The position numbers and the translations under genes are program-made. A DNA stretch of 64,000 nt from Torpedo marmorata (taxonomy: Eukaryota). The stretch is taken from NCBI GenBank assembly GCA_977017645.1, contig OZ360220.1:135222001-135286000 (forward strand), given 5' to 3'. Below are positions 12,101 to 27,100 of the stretch, one piece after another; positions within the stretch are counted from its first letter, which is position 1, and the number at the start of each line of letters is the position of its first letter. The notes under the pieces were generated by a model. That model was not told where the DNA came from and searched no databases. It saw only the letters and a program-made list of their open reading frames with translations.

Positions 12101-15100
12101 ATTCCCCAAGGAGTGATTGAAGTTCGGAACTCTGTTTAATGGCATGGTAGGTGGATGCAGTTCAGAAGATGCTTTCAAAAGGGAGTGAAAAATAACCTAA
12201 AGAAGATGAAATTCAAGTCTTTGGAGAAAAGAGCTATTCTGGTTCTGAACTATTCCATGAGCCAGCAGCACCGAACATGTAGAATGGCAGTAGTTGTGTT
12301 TTGCATACCCAACCTTAGCTGCACTTCAGACATACTATAGAATATGCAGTTGGTGTTTTATTGCACACTTAATGCTTCCGACCAAAGACAAATTTCACAG
12401 TATGTGATCTGGGAGGAAAGAGGAAGCCAGGCAAGATTGGTGGCATTTTCTAATGTGTGTAGAGGCGGTGGGATGAGGGTCTCTATCTGTGTGTGGGCTT
12501 CTTGCCAAATTTTATTGGGGAATACATAAGGGACTTTGAGAAAAACTGATGAACGCCTCTTGTTCAACACAGTTTCTGTCTGATGGTCAGAAATCTCTGT
12601 TTAATAGAGCTTCAGTCCTTTGTGTAAGTGATGCCTTGTCCAATAAAGTGCAGCGTTATTTGTTCTCACAGTTATTGGCAACTGATTAACTGTAAGTAAA
12701 TCTGCCAGTCAAGCTTTAATTTGTATCCTAATGTCCATTGATCATTTTCTGTTTGTTTCCTTCCTTCTCTCCTCCATATAAATATTGGCTCAGGTTCATT
12801 TCCTTCCCTGAGGAATGGACTAGTAATGTTTGATTAACTCTGTCCATCTCCAGGCCAGCTGTGGTGTCGCAGGGCCAGTGCACCTTCTTGCATCTCTTAC
12901 TGGATGGAGGGGTGATCTGTCTTGGTGGATGGGGACTAGGGCAGTCTTCTGGGGGACAGAGGGGATGAAGCTTGGGATGCTGCCCAGATGTTGGGGTGCT
13001 GCCCAGATGTTGGGATGCTGCCCAGATGTTGGGGTGCTGCCCAGATGTTGGGGTGCTGCCCAGATATTTGATTTGTGGACTTTCTGTATTTCTGTCATCT
13101 ATCCTTTCATTGCATTCTCCTTTCTTCAGCACCACTCCATGGATGATCCTCATTTTTGAATTCTGAAGGCTGTGGGTTCAATCCCAGCTCACAGACTTGG
13201 AAACAAACCTAAGGCTGCTGAACCACTGCAAGATCTGCACGAAATGTCAAGGCTTTGAGGTGGGAATAAGAGAAACTGCAGAATCATTCTGCAAGGTTTC
13301 ACTATGCGAGTCGAGCACACGGGGGTAACCTTTCTTCTCGCAGCGTATTATATGCAATATCCTCCTGTCAAAATTTGTCTCATTAAAAATCAGACCAAAA
13401 CACAGCTGTCGATGGAACTTGCTGTGTTTAAAATTGGCTCCCATGTACAATGATATTAACACGTAGAAAAATTTACCTCCCGTTCATCAGCCGAGAACAT
13501 CAGTTCATCTGTCTGTGGTCTTCCTTTGGATGAAAGTATTACAACTTGAATGAGAACAGAATTTCTGAAGGATTAACCAGAAGCTTAAGGTTAAGGCTGT
13601 ACTAGAAGTGTATATGCATCTATTTAATGAAAAAGCCTTCCTCTGGAGATTATCAGATCAAACAGTGGCAGTTTTAACTTGGGGTGATCATTTTGTTCTT
13701 TGTATGGGATGGTTTATGTTTTACAAAAGAGGCTCATGCAACACGATGAATTGTGTCATCACTATTTGCTGTTTTTAGCACTTAAAACAAGTGAAACAAT
13801 TTTGTGATTCCTGTTGACTGTTAAGGAAGAAAATCAATGACCTTGACGTAATAAAGCAGATTCTCCTGTGCTTCCAAACTGTCGAGTAGTGGCGAAAACC
13901 AAGAGAAGTTTAATGGCAGATGTGATGGCAGAGTGGTTTCGATAGTCACTCAAGAGCTGAGGTTGCAGACTGACTGCCTGGGCACAAATGTGTAAACCCG
14001 GGCAATCTCCAGTGGTCTCTGATGTCCAAAATGGCCTTTTGTTCTGATGGTCATCAAATGTGAGCTTGTGGGCTTACCCTTCCCTGTGGCCATTTGTCAC
14101 TCCAACAGCCTCCCGTCCTTTCAGCCTCTGGAATTTTAACTGCTTTCCCTCCATTTCTGTGCTCGATTATGTGCCGTTACCAGCTATTATGGAAGTGGGT
14201 TCTATTCCTGGAGTAACCCTTTAATCCACTATATTTGGTGAGACCTCAAACTACTAAGTTCTTGTGCCTTTCCAGTCCATTGGAGGACAGGAGAGTATCG
14301 CCTAATTACTGTGCTGCGATTTGAAGAGGGCTCGCAAAATTGTTGAGTACCTCTACCACCTCGCACACAGCATCTTTCAGCTACTCCCATCAGGAAAGAG
14401 ATACAGGAGTATCAGAGCCAGCACCACCAGGCTGAGAAACAACTTCTACCACGTGCAGTGAAACTGCTGAACGACTGATGTGAACTGCTCATCCAAACCC
14501 TCCGAAACTCTACTATTTATTAAACAATATTTAATTGTTTTTATGTATGTATATACATACTGCATATGTATCATTTGTCTGTATGTGTGTTATGTCTGGA
14601 TGTGTATTTGCATTTTTGTGCACCGAGGCCCGGAGAATGCTGTTTCGTCAGATTGTACTTGTACAAACGGATGATAAATAAACTTGAACACCCTTTTGAT
14701 GGTGTTTTCCTGTCCTTGCACCCACCGTTCTGTATTTTGATATTTTCTGCCAGCAAGTTTGTTGAAATGACTAGTGTTTATGAGCTTATCAGCTAGCCAC
14801 TGAGATTAGTCAATGAGATAGCCTCACAATGGGCCAAATGGCTTCCTGAGGCAGTTTCGTACACTGTTTCGACAAGTGGCTTTCTGTGGCATGTGCCACG
14901 TCAGGGCTGACATGGCCAGTAGGGGCGAATGACCTGTCTCTGTAATTTGAGGTTGTGTGGCTGAGGGGACTGGTCTCGAAAACTGTCCCAACCAGGAAAG
15001 GGTTGAGTTAACCAGGATGGCTGGAGCGTTCAAACAAAGACACACACTGCTACAATCTGAAGTGATGATAATGAAAATTTGTTGTCATTTCATATGTACA

Positions 15101-18100: not shown

Positions 18101-21100
18101 TAACTATCCGTGTCTTTTACTCTGTTCTACTGCTTCTTTGGTCAGAGAATTCCACAGATTCACTACTCTCTGGGAGAAGCAGTTCCTCCTCATCTCTGTC
18201 TTAAATCTACTCCCCTGAATCTTGAGGCAATGTCCCCTGGTTCTAATATATTGTAACTTTAAAAATATGAGGTTATAATGATATGTGGTTAAGTGTAGCT
18301 GCCTCTGCCATGGTCTTTTCTAACATACTATTATGTTAATCAGGGTTGGACTGGAAGTGACTTGTGTGGAATCTCATGACCAGCTTGGATCTACTGGACT
18401 AAATGGCCCGTTACAGTGCTATAAACTTTGCATAATTCTGTATTTTATAGAATAATAAAGCCATGTATTTTAACATTTCTCTGTTCCCCATCTTAGAGGA
18501 TCTTGGGAAACAAACATCATGCAAGATGGTAACAAATCCTTGATCCAAAGAAGTAAGCGATTGGGTTCACCACCTGGGACCGTGCCTACCTTGACTCCAG
18601 GAGTGAAGCAGTCTGCCAAAGGGAAAGAGAATGGTGGGTACCATTGTCTTCATGACCCTCGTGGGTATTAATGGTGGAGAAGACCTGTGGTTCAAGCCAC
18701 CATCAGAATCTATTGAGAATCCTTGTCACTTTTATGTGAAGCCTGTGGCAACTGTGGAAAATAGAGATCATGGATTCATAATCTTGCGGCATATTTATCC
18801 TTTTAACTTCAATCACATTTAAGGACAGCATTGGCTCTCTGCGATTATAAACTCTAAACATTTTGCAATAAATCACTTTGATCTTGCCATTAATTATATA
18901 TCATGTTGTAATTTGACAGCTATTGTTGAACCCAGCAATAATTATGTGAGGACTGAGTCGCCGAGAAGCTCTGGTCTCTCCATCCAGAATGGAAGGGTAA
19001 GATTTTCCTTCTTAATGGCTCCACCTCTGGTGGTGTTGTGAGTGAATCTGATGTGTTAGCCTTTTCGTTCCTCCCCTCCTTTTGGAGATTTGACCTCTGT
19101 AATATTACTGCTTAGCAAAATGAAGACATGGCTGCTTCACTCAAGACACTGCAAACATCTCCAACCGTATGTGGTAAACCACTGTATATGTATTGTGGGC
19201 TGGTGATAAGTTTGGACATGCCCTGCTGACTGTCCCGGTGGCTCCTCCCCCTACCCCCCTTGAATAAAGGCCATTGTGCCACAACTCCTCCCCCAGTCCG
19301 GGACAGATCACCAGCACGAATGTAGGTCCATTCTGTAGTTAATAAAAGCCTTTCAGTTCTAGTGCAACTTCCAGTCTTTTGGAGTTATTGATTGGCGTAT
19401 CAATTTTATTAACTACATTTTAAAATGGAGAGCGTTCTGACACCCGATAAACTGGACATCGACCCGCAGGCATCGGACGCCAGTAACGCCTTCGAACTCT
19501 GGCTAGTCTGCTTTGAGTCGTTTCTACGGGCGATCAAGGTGCAGGATGAAGAAGAAAAACGCATGGTCCTCCTCTCTAGGGTAAGCCCTTGAGTTTACTC
19601 AACGATCCGCGACTTGCAGACCTACGAGGATGCGATGGAAGCACTGAAACGGCAGTATATACAGCCTGTGAACTCGGTATACGCGAGGCACAGGCTAACG
19701 ACGCGGCAGCAGAGGCCCGGGGAGTCGATCGCGGAGTTCATACGGGCCATACAGACACTCGTGCGGGCGTGCGACTGCAGGGCGCTGACGGCCGAGCAGC
19801 ATGCAGAGTTGCTGGGGAGAGACACTTTTGTAACGGGGATCAGGTCAGTGTACGTGCGCCAGCGACTGCTGGAGCATGCTGACCTGACCTTCCGTTCTGC
19901 TATGGAACTGGCCCACACGCTGGAGGCCGCGCTTCAGAACGCGGACGCTATTCAAGCGCGCGATCTCCAGCAGGCCCCGTGGATGCCACCAAACCCCCCC
20001 ACCCTGCTAGCGACCCGACTACTGCCGCCATCAGCCGCGAGCCCGAGAAAATGTTATTTCTGCAGGCTCGAGAAGCACCCCCGAAAACGTTGCCCGGACC
20101 GCGAAGCAACCTGCTCCAGCTGCGGTAAGAAAGGCCACTTTGCGAAGGCCTGCCGCTCAAAGCCGCGAGCGGGTTCGAGCAGCGCCGCGTGCGAGATTCG
20201 GAGGCGGCCATCTTACGCACCATCACTTCCGGCGCCGCCGTCCTACCTACCCACCGCTGCCAACACGTGTGAAGAATGGGTGCAGCCATCTTGGACCTCG
20301 TCACTTCCGGCGCCGCCATCTTACCGACCCGACGCTTCACTTCCGGCGCCGCCATCTTACTGCCCCGACGCCAACACGTGCGACCCATGGGGGCGGCCAT
20401 CTTCTTCCACTCCGGAGAGCCGACACAGGGTGCCGCTACCCCGGGACAGCAGGCACTCCATCGCGACGTTGGATCAAGACAACGACCTAACACTGGCGTC
20501 AGTGACACTCGACCAGAGCGCACCCCATCAACTATTGAGGTCAATGATGGACATTCTGGTCGAGGGACACAGGACAAACTGCCTGTTCGACACAGGCAGC
20601 ACTGAAAGCTTTTTCCACCCTGACACAGTGCAGCGATGTGGCCTCGTGACACTGCCGGTAAGCCAAAGGGTTGCCATGGCTTCCGGGTCGCACACAACAG
20701 ACATCCGAGGGGGTTGTGTGGCGACGATAGTAGTACAGGGCACGGAATACCGGGACTTCACACTATTGGTCATGCCCCGACTGTGTGCACCTGTACTACT
20801 GGGCCTCGATTTCCAGAGCCACCTCCAGAGCGTTACCATGAAATATGACGGGCCCCTCCCACCGATTACCATCGGTAACCACCAGTTCCTCAGAAACACA
20901 CCCCACACTACCTGCGGTCTAGCCACCCTCAAGATCCCACCCCCGTCGCTATTCGCCAACCTGACCTCTGACTGTAAACCTGTGGCGACCAAAAGCAGGA
21001 GATATAGCGCAGGGGACAGAGCGTTCATCAAGTCAGAGGTGAGGCGACTACTCGGGAAGGGGATCATTGAACCGAGCACGAGTCCCTGGAGGGCCCAGGT

Positions 21101-24100
21101 GGTCGTCGTGAAGAACGGGAACAAAAATAGGATGGTGGTGGATTACAGCCAGACCATCAATAGGTTCACGCAGCTCGACGCGTACCCCCTGCCACTCATT
21201 GCAGATATGGTTAACCAGATAGCGCAATATAAGCTCTTCTCAACCATAGACCTCAAATCCGACTACCACCAGCTCCCCATCCGCCGAGAGGACCGCACTT
21301 ACACCGCCTTTGAGGCGGACGGCAGGCTCTACCATTTCCTGCGCGTCCCCTTTGGGGTTACAAATTGGGTATCCGTCTTCCAGAGGGAGATGGACAGGAT
21401 GGTGGACCAGCACAATCTAAAAGCCACCTTCCCGTACCTGGACAATATCACTATCTGTGGTCACGATCGCCAGGACCACGACAACAACCTCCGGAAGTTC
21501 CTCCAGGCGGCCAAAGCACTTAATCTCACATACAACAAGGATAAGTGCGTGTTCGGGACCACCCGACTCGCTATCCTGGGGTGTGTCGTGGAGAACGGGG
21601 TCATCGGCCCCGACCCCGACCCCGACCTCATGCGCCCTGTTGGAACTACCGCTTCCCCACACCCTCAAAAGGTGCTTGGGCTTCTTTTCGTACTACGCCC
21701 AGTGGGTCCCTAATTATGCAGACAAGGCCCGACCCCTAGTCAAGTCCACCACGTTTCCCCTTGCAGCGGAGGCACGTGAGGCTTTCAGCCTCATAAAATG
21801 GGACATTGCCAGAGCAGCAATGCACGCGGTGGACGAGTCCATCCCCTTCCAAGTCGAGAGTGATGCGTCCGACTTCGCACTGGCTGCTACCCTCAACCAG
21901 GCGGGAAGACCGGTGGCGTTCTTCTCCCGTGCCCTTCAAGGCCCCGAAATTCGGCACTCCGCGGTGGAGAAAGAGGCTCAGGCCATAGTGGAAGCTATCA
22001 GGCACTGGAGGCACTATCTCGCCGGCAAAAGGTTCAACAACCAGCAGCGGGGTAAAATCAAAAACGACAAAATCCTGAGGTGGAGAATTGAACTCTCCAC
22101 CTACAACTACGATATCATGTACCGGCCCGGGAAGCTCAATGAGCCCTCCGATGCTCTATCCCAGGGGACGTGTGCTAGCGCACAGATCGACCGTTTATAT
22201 GCCCTCCACTGCGACCTCTGCCACCCCGGAGTTACCAGGCTGTTTCACTTTGTGAAGGCCCGTAATCTACCGTACTCCCTAGAAGAAGTCAGGGCAATGA
22301 CCAGCAGCTGCCAGGTCTGCGCGGAGTGCAAACCGCACTTCTACCGCCCTGACAGGGCACAGTTAGTTAAGGCGACCCGCCCTTTCGAGCGACTCAGCGT
22401 CGACTTCAAGGGCCCCCTCCCCTCCACCGACCGCAACGTGTACTTTCTCAATGTTATTGACGAGTACTTGCGGTTTCCTTTCGCCATCCCCTGCCCCGAT
22501 ACCTCGGCCACCTCTGTCATAAGAGCTTTTCGCAAGCTCTTCACCCTGTTCGGTTTCCCCTGCTACATCCATAGCGACCGGGGGTCCGCTTTCATGAGCG
22601 ACGAGCTGAGACAATATCTGCTGGCAAGGGGGATCGCCACTAGCAGGACCACGAGCTACAATCCTCAGGGTAACAGACAGGTGGAAAGAGAGAACGCCAC
22701 GGTCTGGAAGGCCTCTCTCTTAGCACTTAGGTCTAAGGGACTACCAGTCTCCCGCTGGCAAGAAGTCCTTCCCGAGGCCCTCCATTCCATCCGGTCCCTG
22801 CTATGTACGTCCACTAACGCGACTCCTCATGAGAGACTCTTTTCTTTCCCCAGGAAGTCGACCACCGGGACGACCCTACCAGCATGGCTGACGTCCCCAG
22901 GGCCAGTGCTGCTCCGCAAACATATCAGGAGCAGTAAATACGCCCCAATGGTCGAGAGGGTCCAGTTAGCCCACGCCAACCCCCAGTATGCCTACGTGGT
23001 CTTCTCTGATGGGCGGGAAGACACCGTTTCCATCCGGGACCTGGCGCCCGCAGGAGCACCGGAACCCGCCCCCGAACACCCCCTTGTTACAATTACCCCC
23101 GTGCAAACATAAGATGCACCATTCGATCCCGCCACGACACCACAATCACCAGCACTTTCGCCGTCACCTGGCGTTCCGGTCCCCCAAACCAGGCAGGAGG
23201 TGGCTCCGCCGCCTGCCCCATCACCACAAGTACTGCGCCGATCACGACGTCAGATTCGACCGCCTGATCGACTTGATCTATGACTGTAAAATATTTTAGA
23301 TGTGTTGTAGTGTTCACTTCACCCCGCTGGACTCTTTTTAAAAAGGAGGGGTGAATGTGGTAAGCCACTGTATATGTATTGTGGGCTGGTGATAGGTTTG
23401 GACATGCCCTGCTGACTGTCCCGGTGGCTCCTCCCCCTACCCCCCTTGAATAAAGGCCATTGTGCCACAACTCCTCCCCCAGTCCGGGACAGATCACCAG
23501 CACGAATGTAGGTCCATTCTGTAGTTAATAAAAGCCTTTCAGTTCTAGTGCAACTTCCAGTCTTTTGGAGTTATTGATGGGCGTATCACCGTAAATCACG
23601 AAAATCTGTAGACACCGTGGTTGAAGTAAAAACACAAATACATAAAGGACACTCTTTGACCTGCTGAGCTTCTCCAGCATTTGTGTTTTTACAAACATCT
23701 CCAACCGTAGTGCATGCTCCAACATATGCACCGAGTTTTCAAAGTAAATATCCTTTAAGTGGAGAACTAACATGACAACAGTGTAACATCACTGCACTAC
23801 GTCATTGAACCCATGACTTCTCAAGAGCATACAAATGTCTTTTTCAAAACGTCCCTGTGTATCCAAAACCCACCCTCTGATTTTAATCTAAGGAGCCTTT
23901 GGGGCTGTCTGGGGTAATGGAAGCAGGACCAGCAGGAATCGTCCCTGTGATATCCATTGACCTGTTGGTCACTGTTTATTTCAATCCACAGCAGAGGTTA
24001 CTCAGTCAAACATTTCTCCCCTTTCTATGTCATCAACTTTGTTGGAGGGTAGAATCATGTCCTCCAGTAAGAATGATTTTGAGTGCCTTGCTGTGCCCAC

Positions 24101-27100
24101 CCCCTGCACCCCAGAAAACTATTTTGCATATGTTTAGACTTCGCTGTGCAGTGAAGAGAGGGGGCTGTCAGGAGCCTTGGTGATTGAAGGGCCATAGAGT
24201 GCATCTCAAAGGACTGAGAAAAATCAAGGGAAGTACTGAAGGAGAGTGAATCAGAGGGATTTGGTTTAAAGTCAGGTACACAAAGAGGCCTGGAGAATGG
24301 GAAAGAACATTTGGATTGTCAGAGAAAGAGAAAAGAATAGAAAAGTTAAAAAAAAAGTCCTTGCAAATTGTGCACCCAGTTTTGTTGACTGGAAATTCAC
24401 AAGTTGTTTGACAATTCATGCATTTGTTTGGTGGATCCTGAGCTGGCTTACCTCGCAGTTTGTCCAGGATAGGTATAACGAAATGAATGAAAAAAGAGGG
24501 TGAAAAAGACTACTGAAACTGTGAAATAAAAAGTGTTGCTGATAATATGAAATAAAAGGAATACTCAACTCATCAGATGGCCTCTGAGATGAGAGAAACA
24601 TTGAGTTAATGTTATGATGATTGATGACTTTTCATCAGTACTGAGCTCCCAGACAGTCACCGATCTCATTTCCCTCTTGTTCTTCCTCCAGTCTGATATT
24701 CCTCAACCCTGCACAGCCCACTTGTATCCCTTCATCAAAATCCACATACAGATTCATCTAGAGAAGCCCATGGTTTCAGCCTGTCTTGTCTCAGAGTTTG
24801 ACTACTTCCTATCTTGACTCAATTCTTTCTCCCTTTATCCATTTTCTTCCCATTTACATCTGTAACACTTTTGTGCCTCTTGACAATTTCTACTTTCCTG
24901 GTCCCAATCAGCTCCTTCTTACCAATTGTGTCCAATCTTTGCACACCTCCGTCCCACGTAAGGATGGCCCGAGGGACTTGCATTTCATCCTTTATTTTAT
25001 TTTAAAAAAAATTTTTATTTAAAAATTTAAATCACAAAATACATAAAATAAAATATGAAATTATCAAAATATTTGTGATACATTTTCACCCTCCCTCCCA
25101 CCCTCCCCTCCCCAACCCTCCCAACCCCACTAATCTAATAAAAATAAAAAATATAAAATAAAAATAGAGAAAGAAAAAAAAAGAAAGAAAAAGATAGGGT
25201 AAGGAGGATGCCAATCTAAAAAACATACATCTATAAACTAATTCTATTATGGAGGTTAGGTATGCCAGTAGATCCGATACCCAGAGATCTTCAAATCCTT
25301 AAACCAACAACTTTCATATATGGGCTCCAAATCTTTAAGAAAAAATGATATTTATTACGTAAATTATAAGTAATTTTTTCAAGTGGTATACACGAACGAA
25401 GTTCTGCATGCCATCTTTCTAATCCTAAATCTAAATCAGATTTCCAAGTAATAGCAATATATTTCTTTGAAACAGCTAAAGCAATTCGCAAAAATTCTAT
25501 TTGATACATGTTTAATTTCATCTTAATACTAAATTTTCTAATATCTCCAAACAAATATATCATAGGATCCATTGGAAATGTAATCATAAATACTTTATCT
25601 AAAATTTTTTTAACTTTCAACCAAAAATCATAAACTTTTGGACAAAACCATGTAGAATGTACAAAAGAACCTTCTTCTTTATTACATCTAAAACATAAAC
25701 CTGATAATGTCGGATTAAATTTCTTTAGTTTTTTAGGTGTTTAATATAATTGATGAAAAAAATTATATTGTACTAATCTATATCTAACATTAATAATCTT
25801 CGTCATACTTAATTTACATAATTCTTTCCAGTGATTCTCATCTATTGTTACATTCAAATCCAATTCCCATTTTAATCTTGATTTATGAATTCCTATTTTA
25901 GAAGTTTTCCTCTGAAACAATTTATACATTTGAGAAATAAATTTATTTACATCTCCTTTAGTAACTAATAATTCTAATTCATTCTGTCTTGGTAAAATTA
26001 AACTATAACCTAATTTCTCAATCAGAAATGCTCTAATTTGATAATAATCAAAAAGTGTATTATCTAGTATATTAAATTTATCCTTCATTCTTTGAAAAGT
26101 AATGAATTTCCCAGCTTCAAAACAGTCATTAATTTTCTTAATTCCTTTTTGAAACCAAATTTTAAATAATTGATTATTAATAGTAAATAGAATAAGTCCA
26201 TTTTGATATAAAGGCATCCTTGGAGAAATCATTGTTCTTCCCCCTATTTCCTTATCCGTCTTATTCCATATTTCTAACAAATGTTTAAAGATAGGAGAAT
26301 TTTTCCTTCTTGTTGATATTAATTTAGAATCCCATTTATAAATAACTTCTTCTTTGGAATCTTCTTCTATATTATTTAATTCTATTTTAATCCAAGCAGA
26401 AGATTTAGTTGGATCAAAAAGTTCATTAACAAATTTTAATTGAGCTGCTTTATAATAATTTTGGAAATTAGGAAGTTGTAAACCACCCATTTCAAAATTC
26501 AAAGTTAATTTTTCTATACCTACTCTTGCTAACTTTCCTTTCCATAAAAATTTCTAATAATTGAATTTAAGTCTCTAAAAATTTTTTGAGGAACTTCATA
26601 AGGAATTGATTGGAAAAGATATTGAATTCTTGGAAAAATATTAATTTTAATACAATTTACCCTTCCCATTAAAGTTATAGGTAAATCTTTCCAATTTTCT
26701 AAATCCTTTTTTATTTTCACAAATAATGGTAAATAATTTAATTTATATAATTATCCAATTTTGTATCAATCTTTATTCCCAAATATTTAATTCCTTCTTT
26801 TGCCCATTTAAATTGTGTAATTTCTTTACACTTACTATAATCCCCTTGTGATAATGCCATAATTTCACTTTTATCAGAGTTAATTTTATATCCTGATATT
26901 TCCCCATATTCTCTCAATATTGCATTTCATCCTTGAACAGAAACCAAATTAACTCCACCTCTCCTGCTGCCTTCCTTCATCTGGCTGAACTCATTCTCCC
27001 ATTAAACTCCAAATGTAGCTCAGAAAACTTGCATGGGTCCAATCTATACTTAACTCTTTAACGGATAGGTGAAACAGACCTTGACTGGTCCTATTAGGGT

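Follow-up and report, generated by a model that had tools for sequence, protein, structure and literature searches.

Conserved complementarity between the LTR and the primer-binding site of a Ty3/Gypsy clade in Torpedo marmorata points to self-primed reverse transcription

The window analyzed here, a 64,000-nt stretch of the Torpedo marmorata genome, contains a young 4419-bp Ty3/Gypsy element on the forward strand, with LTRs at 19170–19402 and 23356–23588. The 233-bp 5′ LTR (TG...CA) differs from the 3′ LTR at three of 233 positions, and the element is flanked by two copies of the target-site duplication CCGTA (19165–19169 and 23589–23593). A region encoding gag, PR, RT, RNase H, and IN extends from the gag ATG at 19425 to 23271 and is followed by a polypurine tract (23340–23355) located directly before the 3′ LTR; Pfam identified Gag, zinc knuckle, protease, RT, RNase H, and integrase domains, and the RT contains the motif YLDN. 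This region is a single frame in relatives; the window copy is broken by a stop at 19590–19592 and by a frame change near 21637–21677. Assignment to Ty3/Gypsy is borne out by every character used (i.e., TG..CA LTRs, target-site duplication, polypurine tract, and gag-PR-RT-RH-IN order). Gmr1-like Gypsy elements, which are described as having integrase before RT (PMC3601003), were considered and rejected, as IN follows RNase H here. The host genome (6.2 Gb) contains 1484 candidate copies, and the 40 that were scored were 98–100% identical. The proline-rich spacer between the zinc knuckle and the protease consists of imperfect 36–78-nt repeats (20188–20403). Elsewhere in the window, two open frames on the minus strand (25291–26553) resemble, by eye, the C-terminal part of a LINE-1-type ORF2, and a tandem repeat with a 19-nt unit (approximately six copies) is present at 12972–13085.

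A first-pass annotation of the window had seen no chromodomain at the integrase C-terminus, and PF00385 was indeed not among the Pfam matches to the window proteins, to P0006, or to P0009; the domain was also found in none of the 120 relatives listed. Among the matches listed, the nearest named proteins were from rays and sharks (72–88%), followed by unnamed and invertebrate relatives (~57–68%), while the best solved relative was the Ty3 RT (E 5e-27). In a quick RT tree (38 rows) that covered the clade and four host outgroup RTs, the elements were separated from these outgroups only; seven of 20 outgroup stretches had no RT match. A search of the host genome for a chromovirus outgroup found none, as none of 15 chromodomain matches was located beside a similar integrase; this genome may thus contain few chromoviruses or none. 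No relative of the element was found in the viral contigs searched. Ten bacterial genome bins (L091–L100) included contigs bearing these animal Gypsy elements, most likely representing host contamination.

Two AATAAA hexamers are present in the 5′ LTR. The upstream hexamer (19263–19268, in U3), which had been overlooked previously, is a putative TATA-like box; it is located 31–32 nt before the A of an initiator-like CCAGTCC (19293–19299) in the aligned sister families, one of which has CAT in place of CAG. Transcription probably starts at A19295 or an adjacent base, as suggested by this motif and by the ends of fold-back insertions (see below). While the spacing between the TATA-like box and the initiator is constant at 31–32 nt, the distance from the initiator to the putative primer varies from 52 to 75 nt among sister families. 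A 9-bp inverted repeat (19229–19237 and 19298–19306), largely kept in sister families, flanks the promoter; it could form in the 3′ LTR transcript only, around the U3 AATAAA, and may promote skipping of this upstream hexamer. The second hexamer (19341–19346), a likely poly(A) signal, is contained in a 14-nt segment at 19334–19347 (TGTAGTTAATAAAA), for which the first-pass annotation had proposed exact reverse complementarity to the bases immediately downstream of the LTR and, thus, self-priming. Both the complementarity, to 19404–19417 (TTTTATTAACTACA), and the position of the hexamer were confirmed, as was the absence of a TGG-type primer-binding site (PBS): the LTR ends in CA at 19402 and is followed by a single A (19403; A in 28 of 29 families) and then by the complementary site, with no TGG. 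We refer to the helix between 19334–19347 and this putative PBS as P1. Matches of at least 13 nt were found in 0/5000 dinucleotide shuffles of the LTR (maximum 12; reversed 25 nt after the LTR) and in none of ~1250 other 233-nt stretches of the window (maximum 10); in a looser local control, which compared any 25-mer with the preceding 233 nt, matches of at least 14 nt occurred at 3 of ~2550 positions, with the PBS position itself not excluded. Folding with four assumed RNA starts predicted pairing probabilities of 0.76–1.0 for each P1 pair. With 14 complementary nt at an offset of 1 from the 5′ LTR, the site falls within the sequence rule described for plant self-primers (at least 10 complementary bases starting 0–5 nt after the 5′ LTR; PMC6317226). 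A comparison with host tRNAs, which the first-pass annotation had named as a check, gave a longest PBS match of 6 nt in an incomplete set of 32 tRNA genes representing nine anticodons.

P1 is a trait of the whole clade, and its distance from the end of the LTR is constant at 1 nt. Among 90 loci surveyed in metagenome and bin contigs, 52 had a Gag start and enough upstream DNA (seven loci were too short and 31 had no Gag start; several loci per family were counted). At least 11 perfect pairs were found at 44 of these 52 related loci and fewer than 11 at the other eight, while 0/50 control positions showed at least ten pairs. Pairing was also scored in 29 families (23 foreign and six host families) that were chosen after the helix had already been seen; although the family finder imposed the initial bases of the PBS in foreign families and, in part, the one-base spacer, the survey of 52 loci used no such filter and the spacer reappeared there. 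Across these 29 families, P1 positions 1–11 showed 317 Watson–Crick pairs out of 319, with one G-U and one mismatch, and positions 12–13 were Watson–Crick in 53/58 cases, with pairing fading by positions 16–18; of 62 pairs containing G, 61 were G-C and one was G-U. When each PBS was placed on the LTR of another family, a median of only 5 pairs (maximum 12) was obtained. The covariation proposed as a check in the first-pass annotation was observed in ten alignable host copies, with 160/160 cells paired and four pairs changed on both sides, although a shuffle test on these copies is inflated by the relatedness of the sequences. Two closely related copies (L036 and L040), with 3/220 differences in the LTR and 51/3751 in the interior (98.6% identity), differ by a matching transversion in both arms, representing one event. 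Three host copies extend the PBS to 25 nt with further LTR complement. By comparison, tRNA-type Gypsy elements in the same genome, in which integrase precedes RT, showed TGG in 8/10 cases and a self-helix of 5–8 nt in 10/10 with an LTR pair. A candidate TGG-type exception within the clade (L067) was rejected, as its TGG sits in U5 and the helix is present; the helix was fitted by eye in two loci (L086 and L094), and in a third (L080) the 5′ LTR is disrupted and the site is found in the 3′ LTR with one mismatch. Overall, P1 is real, conserved, and, most likely, functional.

A second helix, P2, adjoins P1. Its 5′ arm GCC (19348–19350) begins at the first base past the putative primer and pairs with GGC at 19394–19396. 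P2 scored 306, as compared to 205 ± 12 for shuffled sequences (0/2000 shuffles), with the peak at offset 0 from P1. The arms are partly shared motifs (score of 10.6 with their own family and 9.2 across families), and 16 of 126 P2 pairs are G-U, unlike in P1. Because G-U is nearly absent from P1 and frequent in P2, we infer that P2 may be an ordinary selected RNA structure while P1 would be re-templated in each replication cycle, a suggestion supported by L036, in which both arms changed together. A third duplex, between leader and U5, did not score above shuffles (380 versus 394 ± 14). A splice acceptor upstream of the primer was found in 6/29 families, as compared to 2.8 expected (56/1000 shuffles), and was not significantly enriched; seven loci (L067, L075, L080, L086, L094, L099, and L102) showed a pyrimidine run followed by CAG at a distance of 10–40 nt before the primer site. 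TACCT or TTACCT, which may be an antisense splice-donor-like motif, recurs upstream of the primer site in L014, L032, L073, L075, and L099.

Folding predicted that the AAUAAA in the 5′ LTR is 89–99% free until the PBS has been made and 95–100% paired thereafter, while the 3′ copy (at 23527, with no adjacent partner) is predicted to be 54–91% free. A canonical hexamer is found inside P1 in 21/29 families and is absent there in the other eight, three of which carry one downstream, in a loop outside the helix; masking of the poly(A) signal therefore cannot be the conserved job of this helix, even though it is plausible as a side benefit predicted from folding. Promoter proximity alone could suffice to silence a 5′ poly(A) signal. 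Retroposed copies with poly(A) were found at three loci, two with an A run 17–20 nt after AATAAA and one representing a LINE end; as all three are located beside other A-rich repeats, they provide only a weak hint.

The host genome also contains fold-back insertions, in which the LTR end and PBS are followed by continuing LTR complement. Searches with this pattern identified 12, 54, and 13 loci in the window family and its sisters, as well as five in a more distant family, while control searches with the reversed pattern identified none. The 79 fold-backs of the window family and sisters were mapped and, after removal of three duplicates (including L301), represented 76 distinct loci; in each, the PBS runs on as inverted LTR from the 3′ end of the primer. 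Exact 5-bp duplications in 6 of the 14 fold-back loci with two U3 ends indicate that these loci are integration products. The inverted arm reaches or passes the start of U3 in 60/76 loci (two assigned by eye due to internal deletions), and these are thus uninformative as to primer length; four of these arms (L209, L276, L280, and L295) extend through the polypurine tract and into internal sequence. Four others (L266, L283, L203, and L242) end within the polypurine tract, at a depth of 3–13 nt, a pattern that copying of a retained plus-strand RNA primer might produce. The 16 internal arm ends were located at −46, −45, −26, −17, −13, −8, −3, 0, +1, +1, +2, +8, +9, +15, +16, and +108, counted from the initiator A (19295), a motif that was one of four candidates noted before the fold-back loci were examined. 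Four of these ends are located 0 to +2 from the initiator (p = 1.5e-4), 11 do not extend beyond it (p = 3e-4), and one extends more than 16 nt beyond; these p-values, like the one given below, assume evenly spread ends. On the other side of the fold-back, the whole LTR was kept in 21 loci and only a remnant in 55. Relative to the predicted cut at 19347/19348, the 55 remnants end at −49 to −1 in 28 cases, at 0 to +2 in ten, and beyond in 17; the ten junctions within 0–2 nt of the cut compare to 1.7 expected (p = 1.3e-5), while one junction is located near the putative transcription start. No clear microhomology was seen at the ten junctions at the cut when compared with the window copy (an approximate comparison, since sister interiors differ), which is consistent with synthesis running off the end of a template. 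Four junctions (L252, L277, L289, and L296) are located 16–19 nt beyond the cut, where the helix ends on its far side, and may mark a boundary of primer trimming. Divergence between arms was 19/1001 in R and 28/2222 in U3 and, thus, not clearly higher in R.

Self-priming as proposed in the first-pass annotation is strongly supported by covariation, the fixed register, the lack of a tRNA match, the second helix at the cut, and these fossil junctions, and we consider self-priming in some form very likely. The proposal of Tf1-like pairing held in part; the PBS would pair with the element's own transcript, but the paired stretch, based on fold-back ends and spacing, is likely ~40 nt inside this transcript rather than at its 5′ end. 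The fold-back junctions at the predicted cut and the internal ends at the initiator point to a primer derived from the capped front of the element's own RNA (approximately 19295–19347, ~53 nt) and cut at the end of the helix, a reading to which we assign a probability of roughly 0.6. Transcription would start at the initiator near 19295, and P1 and P2 would form once 19404–19417 has been transcribed, with P1 additionally predicted to mask the AAUAAA of the 5′ LTR. The RNA would then be cut at the junction of P1 and P2, probably by the element's RNase H as judged from the junctions and the analogy to Tf1; the cut is placed at 19347/19348 or as much as 2 nt into the A run (19345–19348) and would leave a 3′ OH after AAUAAA(A), with only the last 14 nt of the ~53-nt primer paired with the PBS. 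RT would extend this end into a strong-stop DNA of ~56 nt, which could transfer on the 15–25 nt of R that separate the cut from the poly(A) site; transfer on such a short remaining R would explain why primer and poly(A) signal overlap. The primer would stay attached and normally be trimmed to 13–18 nt, and plus-strand synthesis would copy the trimmed primer back into the PBS, keeping both arms exactly complementary, while trimming failure would yield inverted LTR copies. Evidence for the long primer comes from sister families in the host genome; the start site is placed by four events and the motif, with 5/16 ends located further upstream. The four arms that run past the polypurine tract require an extra template switch if the primer is ~53 nt long, and the accumulation of junctions at the cut could instead reflect the edge of a hairpin loop that coincides with it.

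Self-priming could take other forms. A plain Tf1-type mechanism, with transcription starting at 19334–19337 and the first 11–14 nt serving as the entire primer, appears unlikely, although several observations are compatible with it; P1 position 11 is A in 23/29 families, with T-rich bases before it and G at position 10 in 27/29, representing an initiator-like context that would fit an 11-nt primer, above all outside the host genome. Cleavage where the helix ends and the presence of an adjacent helix both agree with Tf1 (PMC7175516), and snap-back of a 14-nt PBS would account for arms that end in U3. However, pairing remains almost perfect through position 13, fading only by 16–18, the internal arm ends cluster at or below the initiator at 19295 rather than across U3, and the TATA-like box keeps a fixed distance to this initiator and not to the primer. 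Priming from the 3′ end, i.e., by the 3′ copy of R with its tail cut behind AAUAAA, either in cis or from a co-packaged RNA, would account directly for the poly(A) signal within the primer and would allow the four arms extending through U3 and the polypurine tract to form in one step. One of these arms (L209) differs from its neighboring LTR at three positions, two of them within the helix, suggesting that its primer came from another molecule; all three differences, however, fall within the first 53 nt and none in U3. As this mechanism predicts a strong stop at the transcription start (~+53), where 1/55 junctions is found as compared to ten at the cut, and as, in the host families, the 3′ arm of P2 is located past the likely poly(A) site, such that P2 could form at the 5′ end only, we regard it as decidedly unlikely. 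A primer of some other length, resulting for example from mixed starts or from a second trimming cut before priming, would be consistent with the scatter of internal ends from −46 to +16 around the initiator and with the four left junctions at +16 to +19, but no other single position shows an enrichment as strong as that at the cut or at the initiator, making such variants improbable.

Two explanations dispense with self-priming. The helix might be solely a poly(A)-masking or packaging hairpin, with priming by something else; predicted pairing of the AAUAAA after, but not before, synthesis of the PBS and the canonical hexamer within the helix of 21/29 families are in line with this, as is the control of the HIV-1 5′ poly(A) signal by a hairpin and U1 (PMC5961354). 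A hairpin alone leaves unexplained the fixed 1-nt offset, the lack of G-U in P1 as opposed to P2, the eight families with no canonical hexamer in the helix, the missing alternative primer site, and the pile-up of junctions; this explanation is therefore very improbable. Priming at 19404–19417 by a host tRNA, a tRNA half, or another small RNA, with the LTR match being secondary, has the least to recommend it and is scarcely credible. While the tRNA comparison covered nine anticodons, with mitochondrial tRNAs and other small RNAs outside its scope, the site lacks TGG, matches the 32 host tRNA genes over 6 nt at most, and changes in step with the LTR between sister families, which a fixed host RNA could not follow.

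Compared with known systems, the clade combines familiar and divergent features. In Tf1, the first 11 transcript bases are described as pairing with the PBS, with an RNase H cut between bases 11 and 12 (PMC7175516), in a ‘pretzel’ structure of three duplexes (PMC7175516, PMC4600332, PMC5341516, bioRxiv 10.1101/2022.12.06.519325). Like the Tf1/sushi chromoviruses as described in these sources (Tf1 and Tf2 of Schizosaccharomyces pombe, Tj1, Tosmo1-3, and Tcry1), the window element is a Ty3/Gypsy element with no tRNA site, a PBS that can pair with its own LTR, a second duplex beside the primer duplex, and a cut, here deduced from the genomic evidence, at the 3′ end of the primer. It is set apart from them by the lack of a chromodomain and by a primer position and third duplex that do not clearly correspond; its helix spans 13–18 nt rather than the 11 nt of Tf1, the paired stretch is likely ~40 nt inside the transcript, overlapping the poly(A) signal, two duplexes are supported with no third (leader) duplex found, and the primer is likely longer than that of yeast Tf1 (~53 versus 11 nt). 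The plant lineages Tcn1 (Gypsy) and TAR/Houba/Osr-1 (Copia) are predicted self-primers and, unlike the window element, are described in the cited text with no cut site or primer length (PMC6317226). The window element shares with Tcn1 and TAR the complementarity defined by the plant rule, TAR representing an occurrence of this trait outside chromoviruses. HIV-1 is primed by a tRNA. Its 5′ poly(A) hairpin, an RNA structure over AAUAAA proposed to limit premature polyadenylation (PMC5961354), resembles P1 in this respect. The HIV-1 hairpin is, however, local to R as described, while the partner of the window hexamer is located outside the LTR and present at the 5′ end only. Among non-chromoviral animal Gypsy elements, Cigr-1 may be a candidate relative, as judged from its size. 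Cigr-1, Mag A/B/C, and MolGy1-16, compared here by description only, are compact like the window element, and the main text of the study describing these clades mentions neither ‘PBS’ nor ‘primer’ (PMC6238403).

In the literature searched, which did not extend to the primary Tf1 papers and Repbase reports, no description of self-priming in this clade was found; self-priming is there reported as experimentally shown for Tf1 only and is otherwise assigned to Tf1/sushi elements and two plant lineages. The clade probably uses a form of self-primed reverse transcription that differs from those in this literature, and the positions of the RNA cut and start are backed by evidence from the genome. As a more tentative proposal, for which the odds are somewhat against, a large animal Gypsy clade with no chromodomain may have reached self-priming separately from Tf1, using a capped primer of 50–75 nt cut behind AAUAAA at the junction of two helices, such that one helix would set the 3′ end of the primer, silence the 5′ poly(A) signal, and rewrite the PBS, with fold-backs mapping both cut and start. 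The fold-backs yield exact predictions, namely a start at 19295, a cut at 19346–19348, and a strong stop of ~56 nt, and insertions of this type may allow priming to be mapped in any large genome without RNA data. If this interpretation is true, the RNase H of these elements would cleave duplex RNA located internally in the leader, self-priming would be the rule in a widespread animal Gypsy clade scored as ‘no PBS’ by tRNA-based annotation, and this clade would be independent of host tRNA supply and of control by tRNA fragments.
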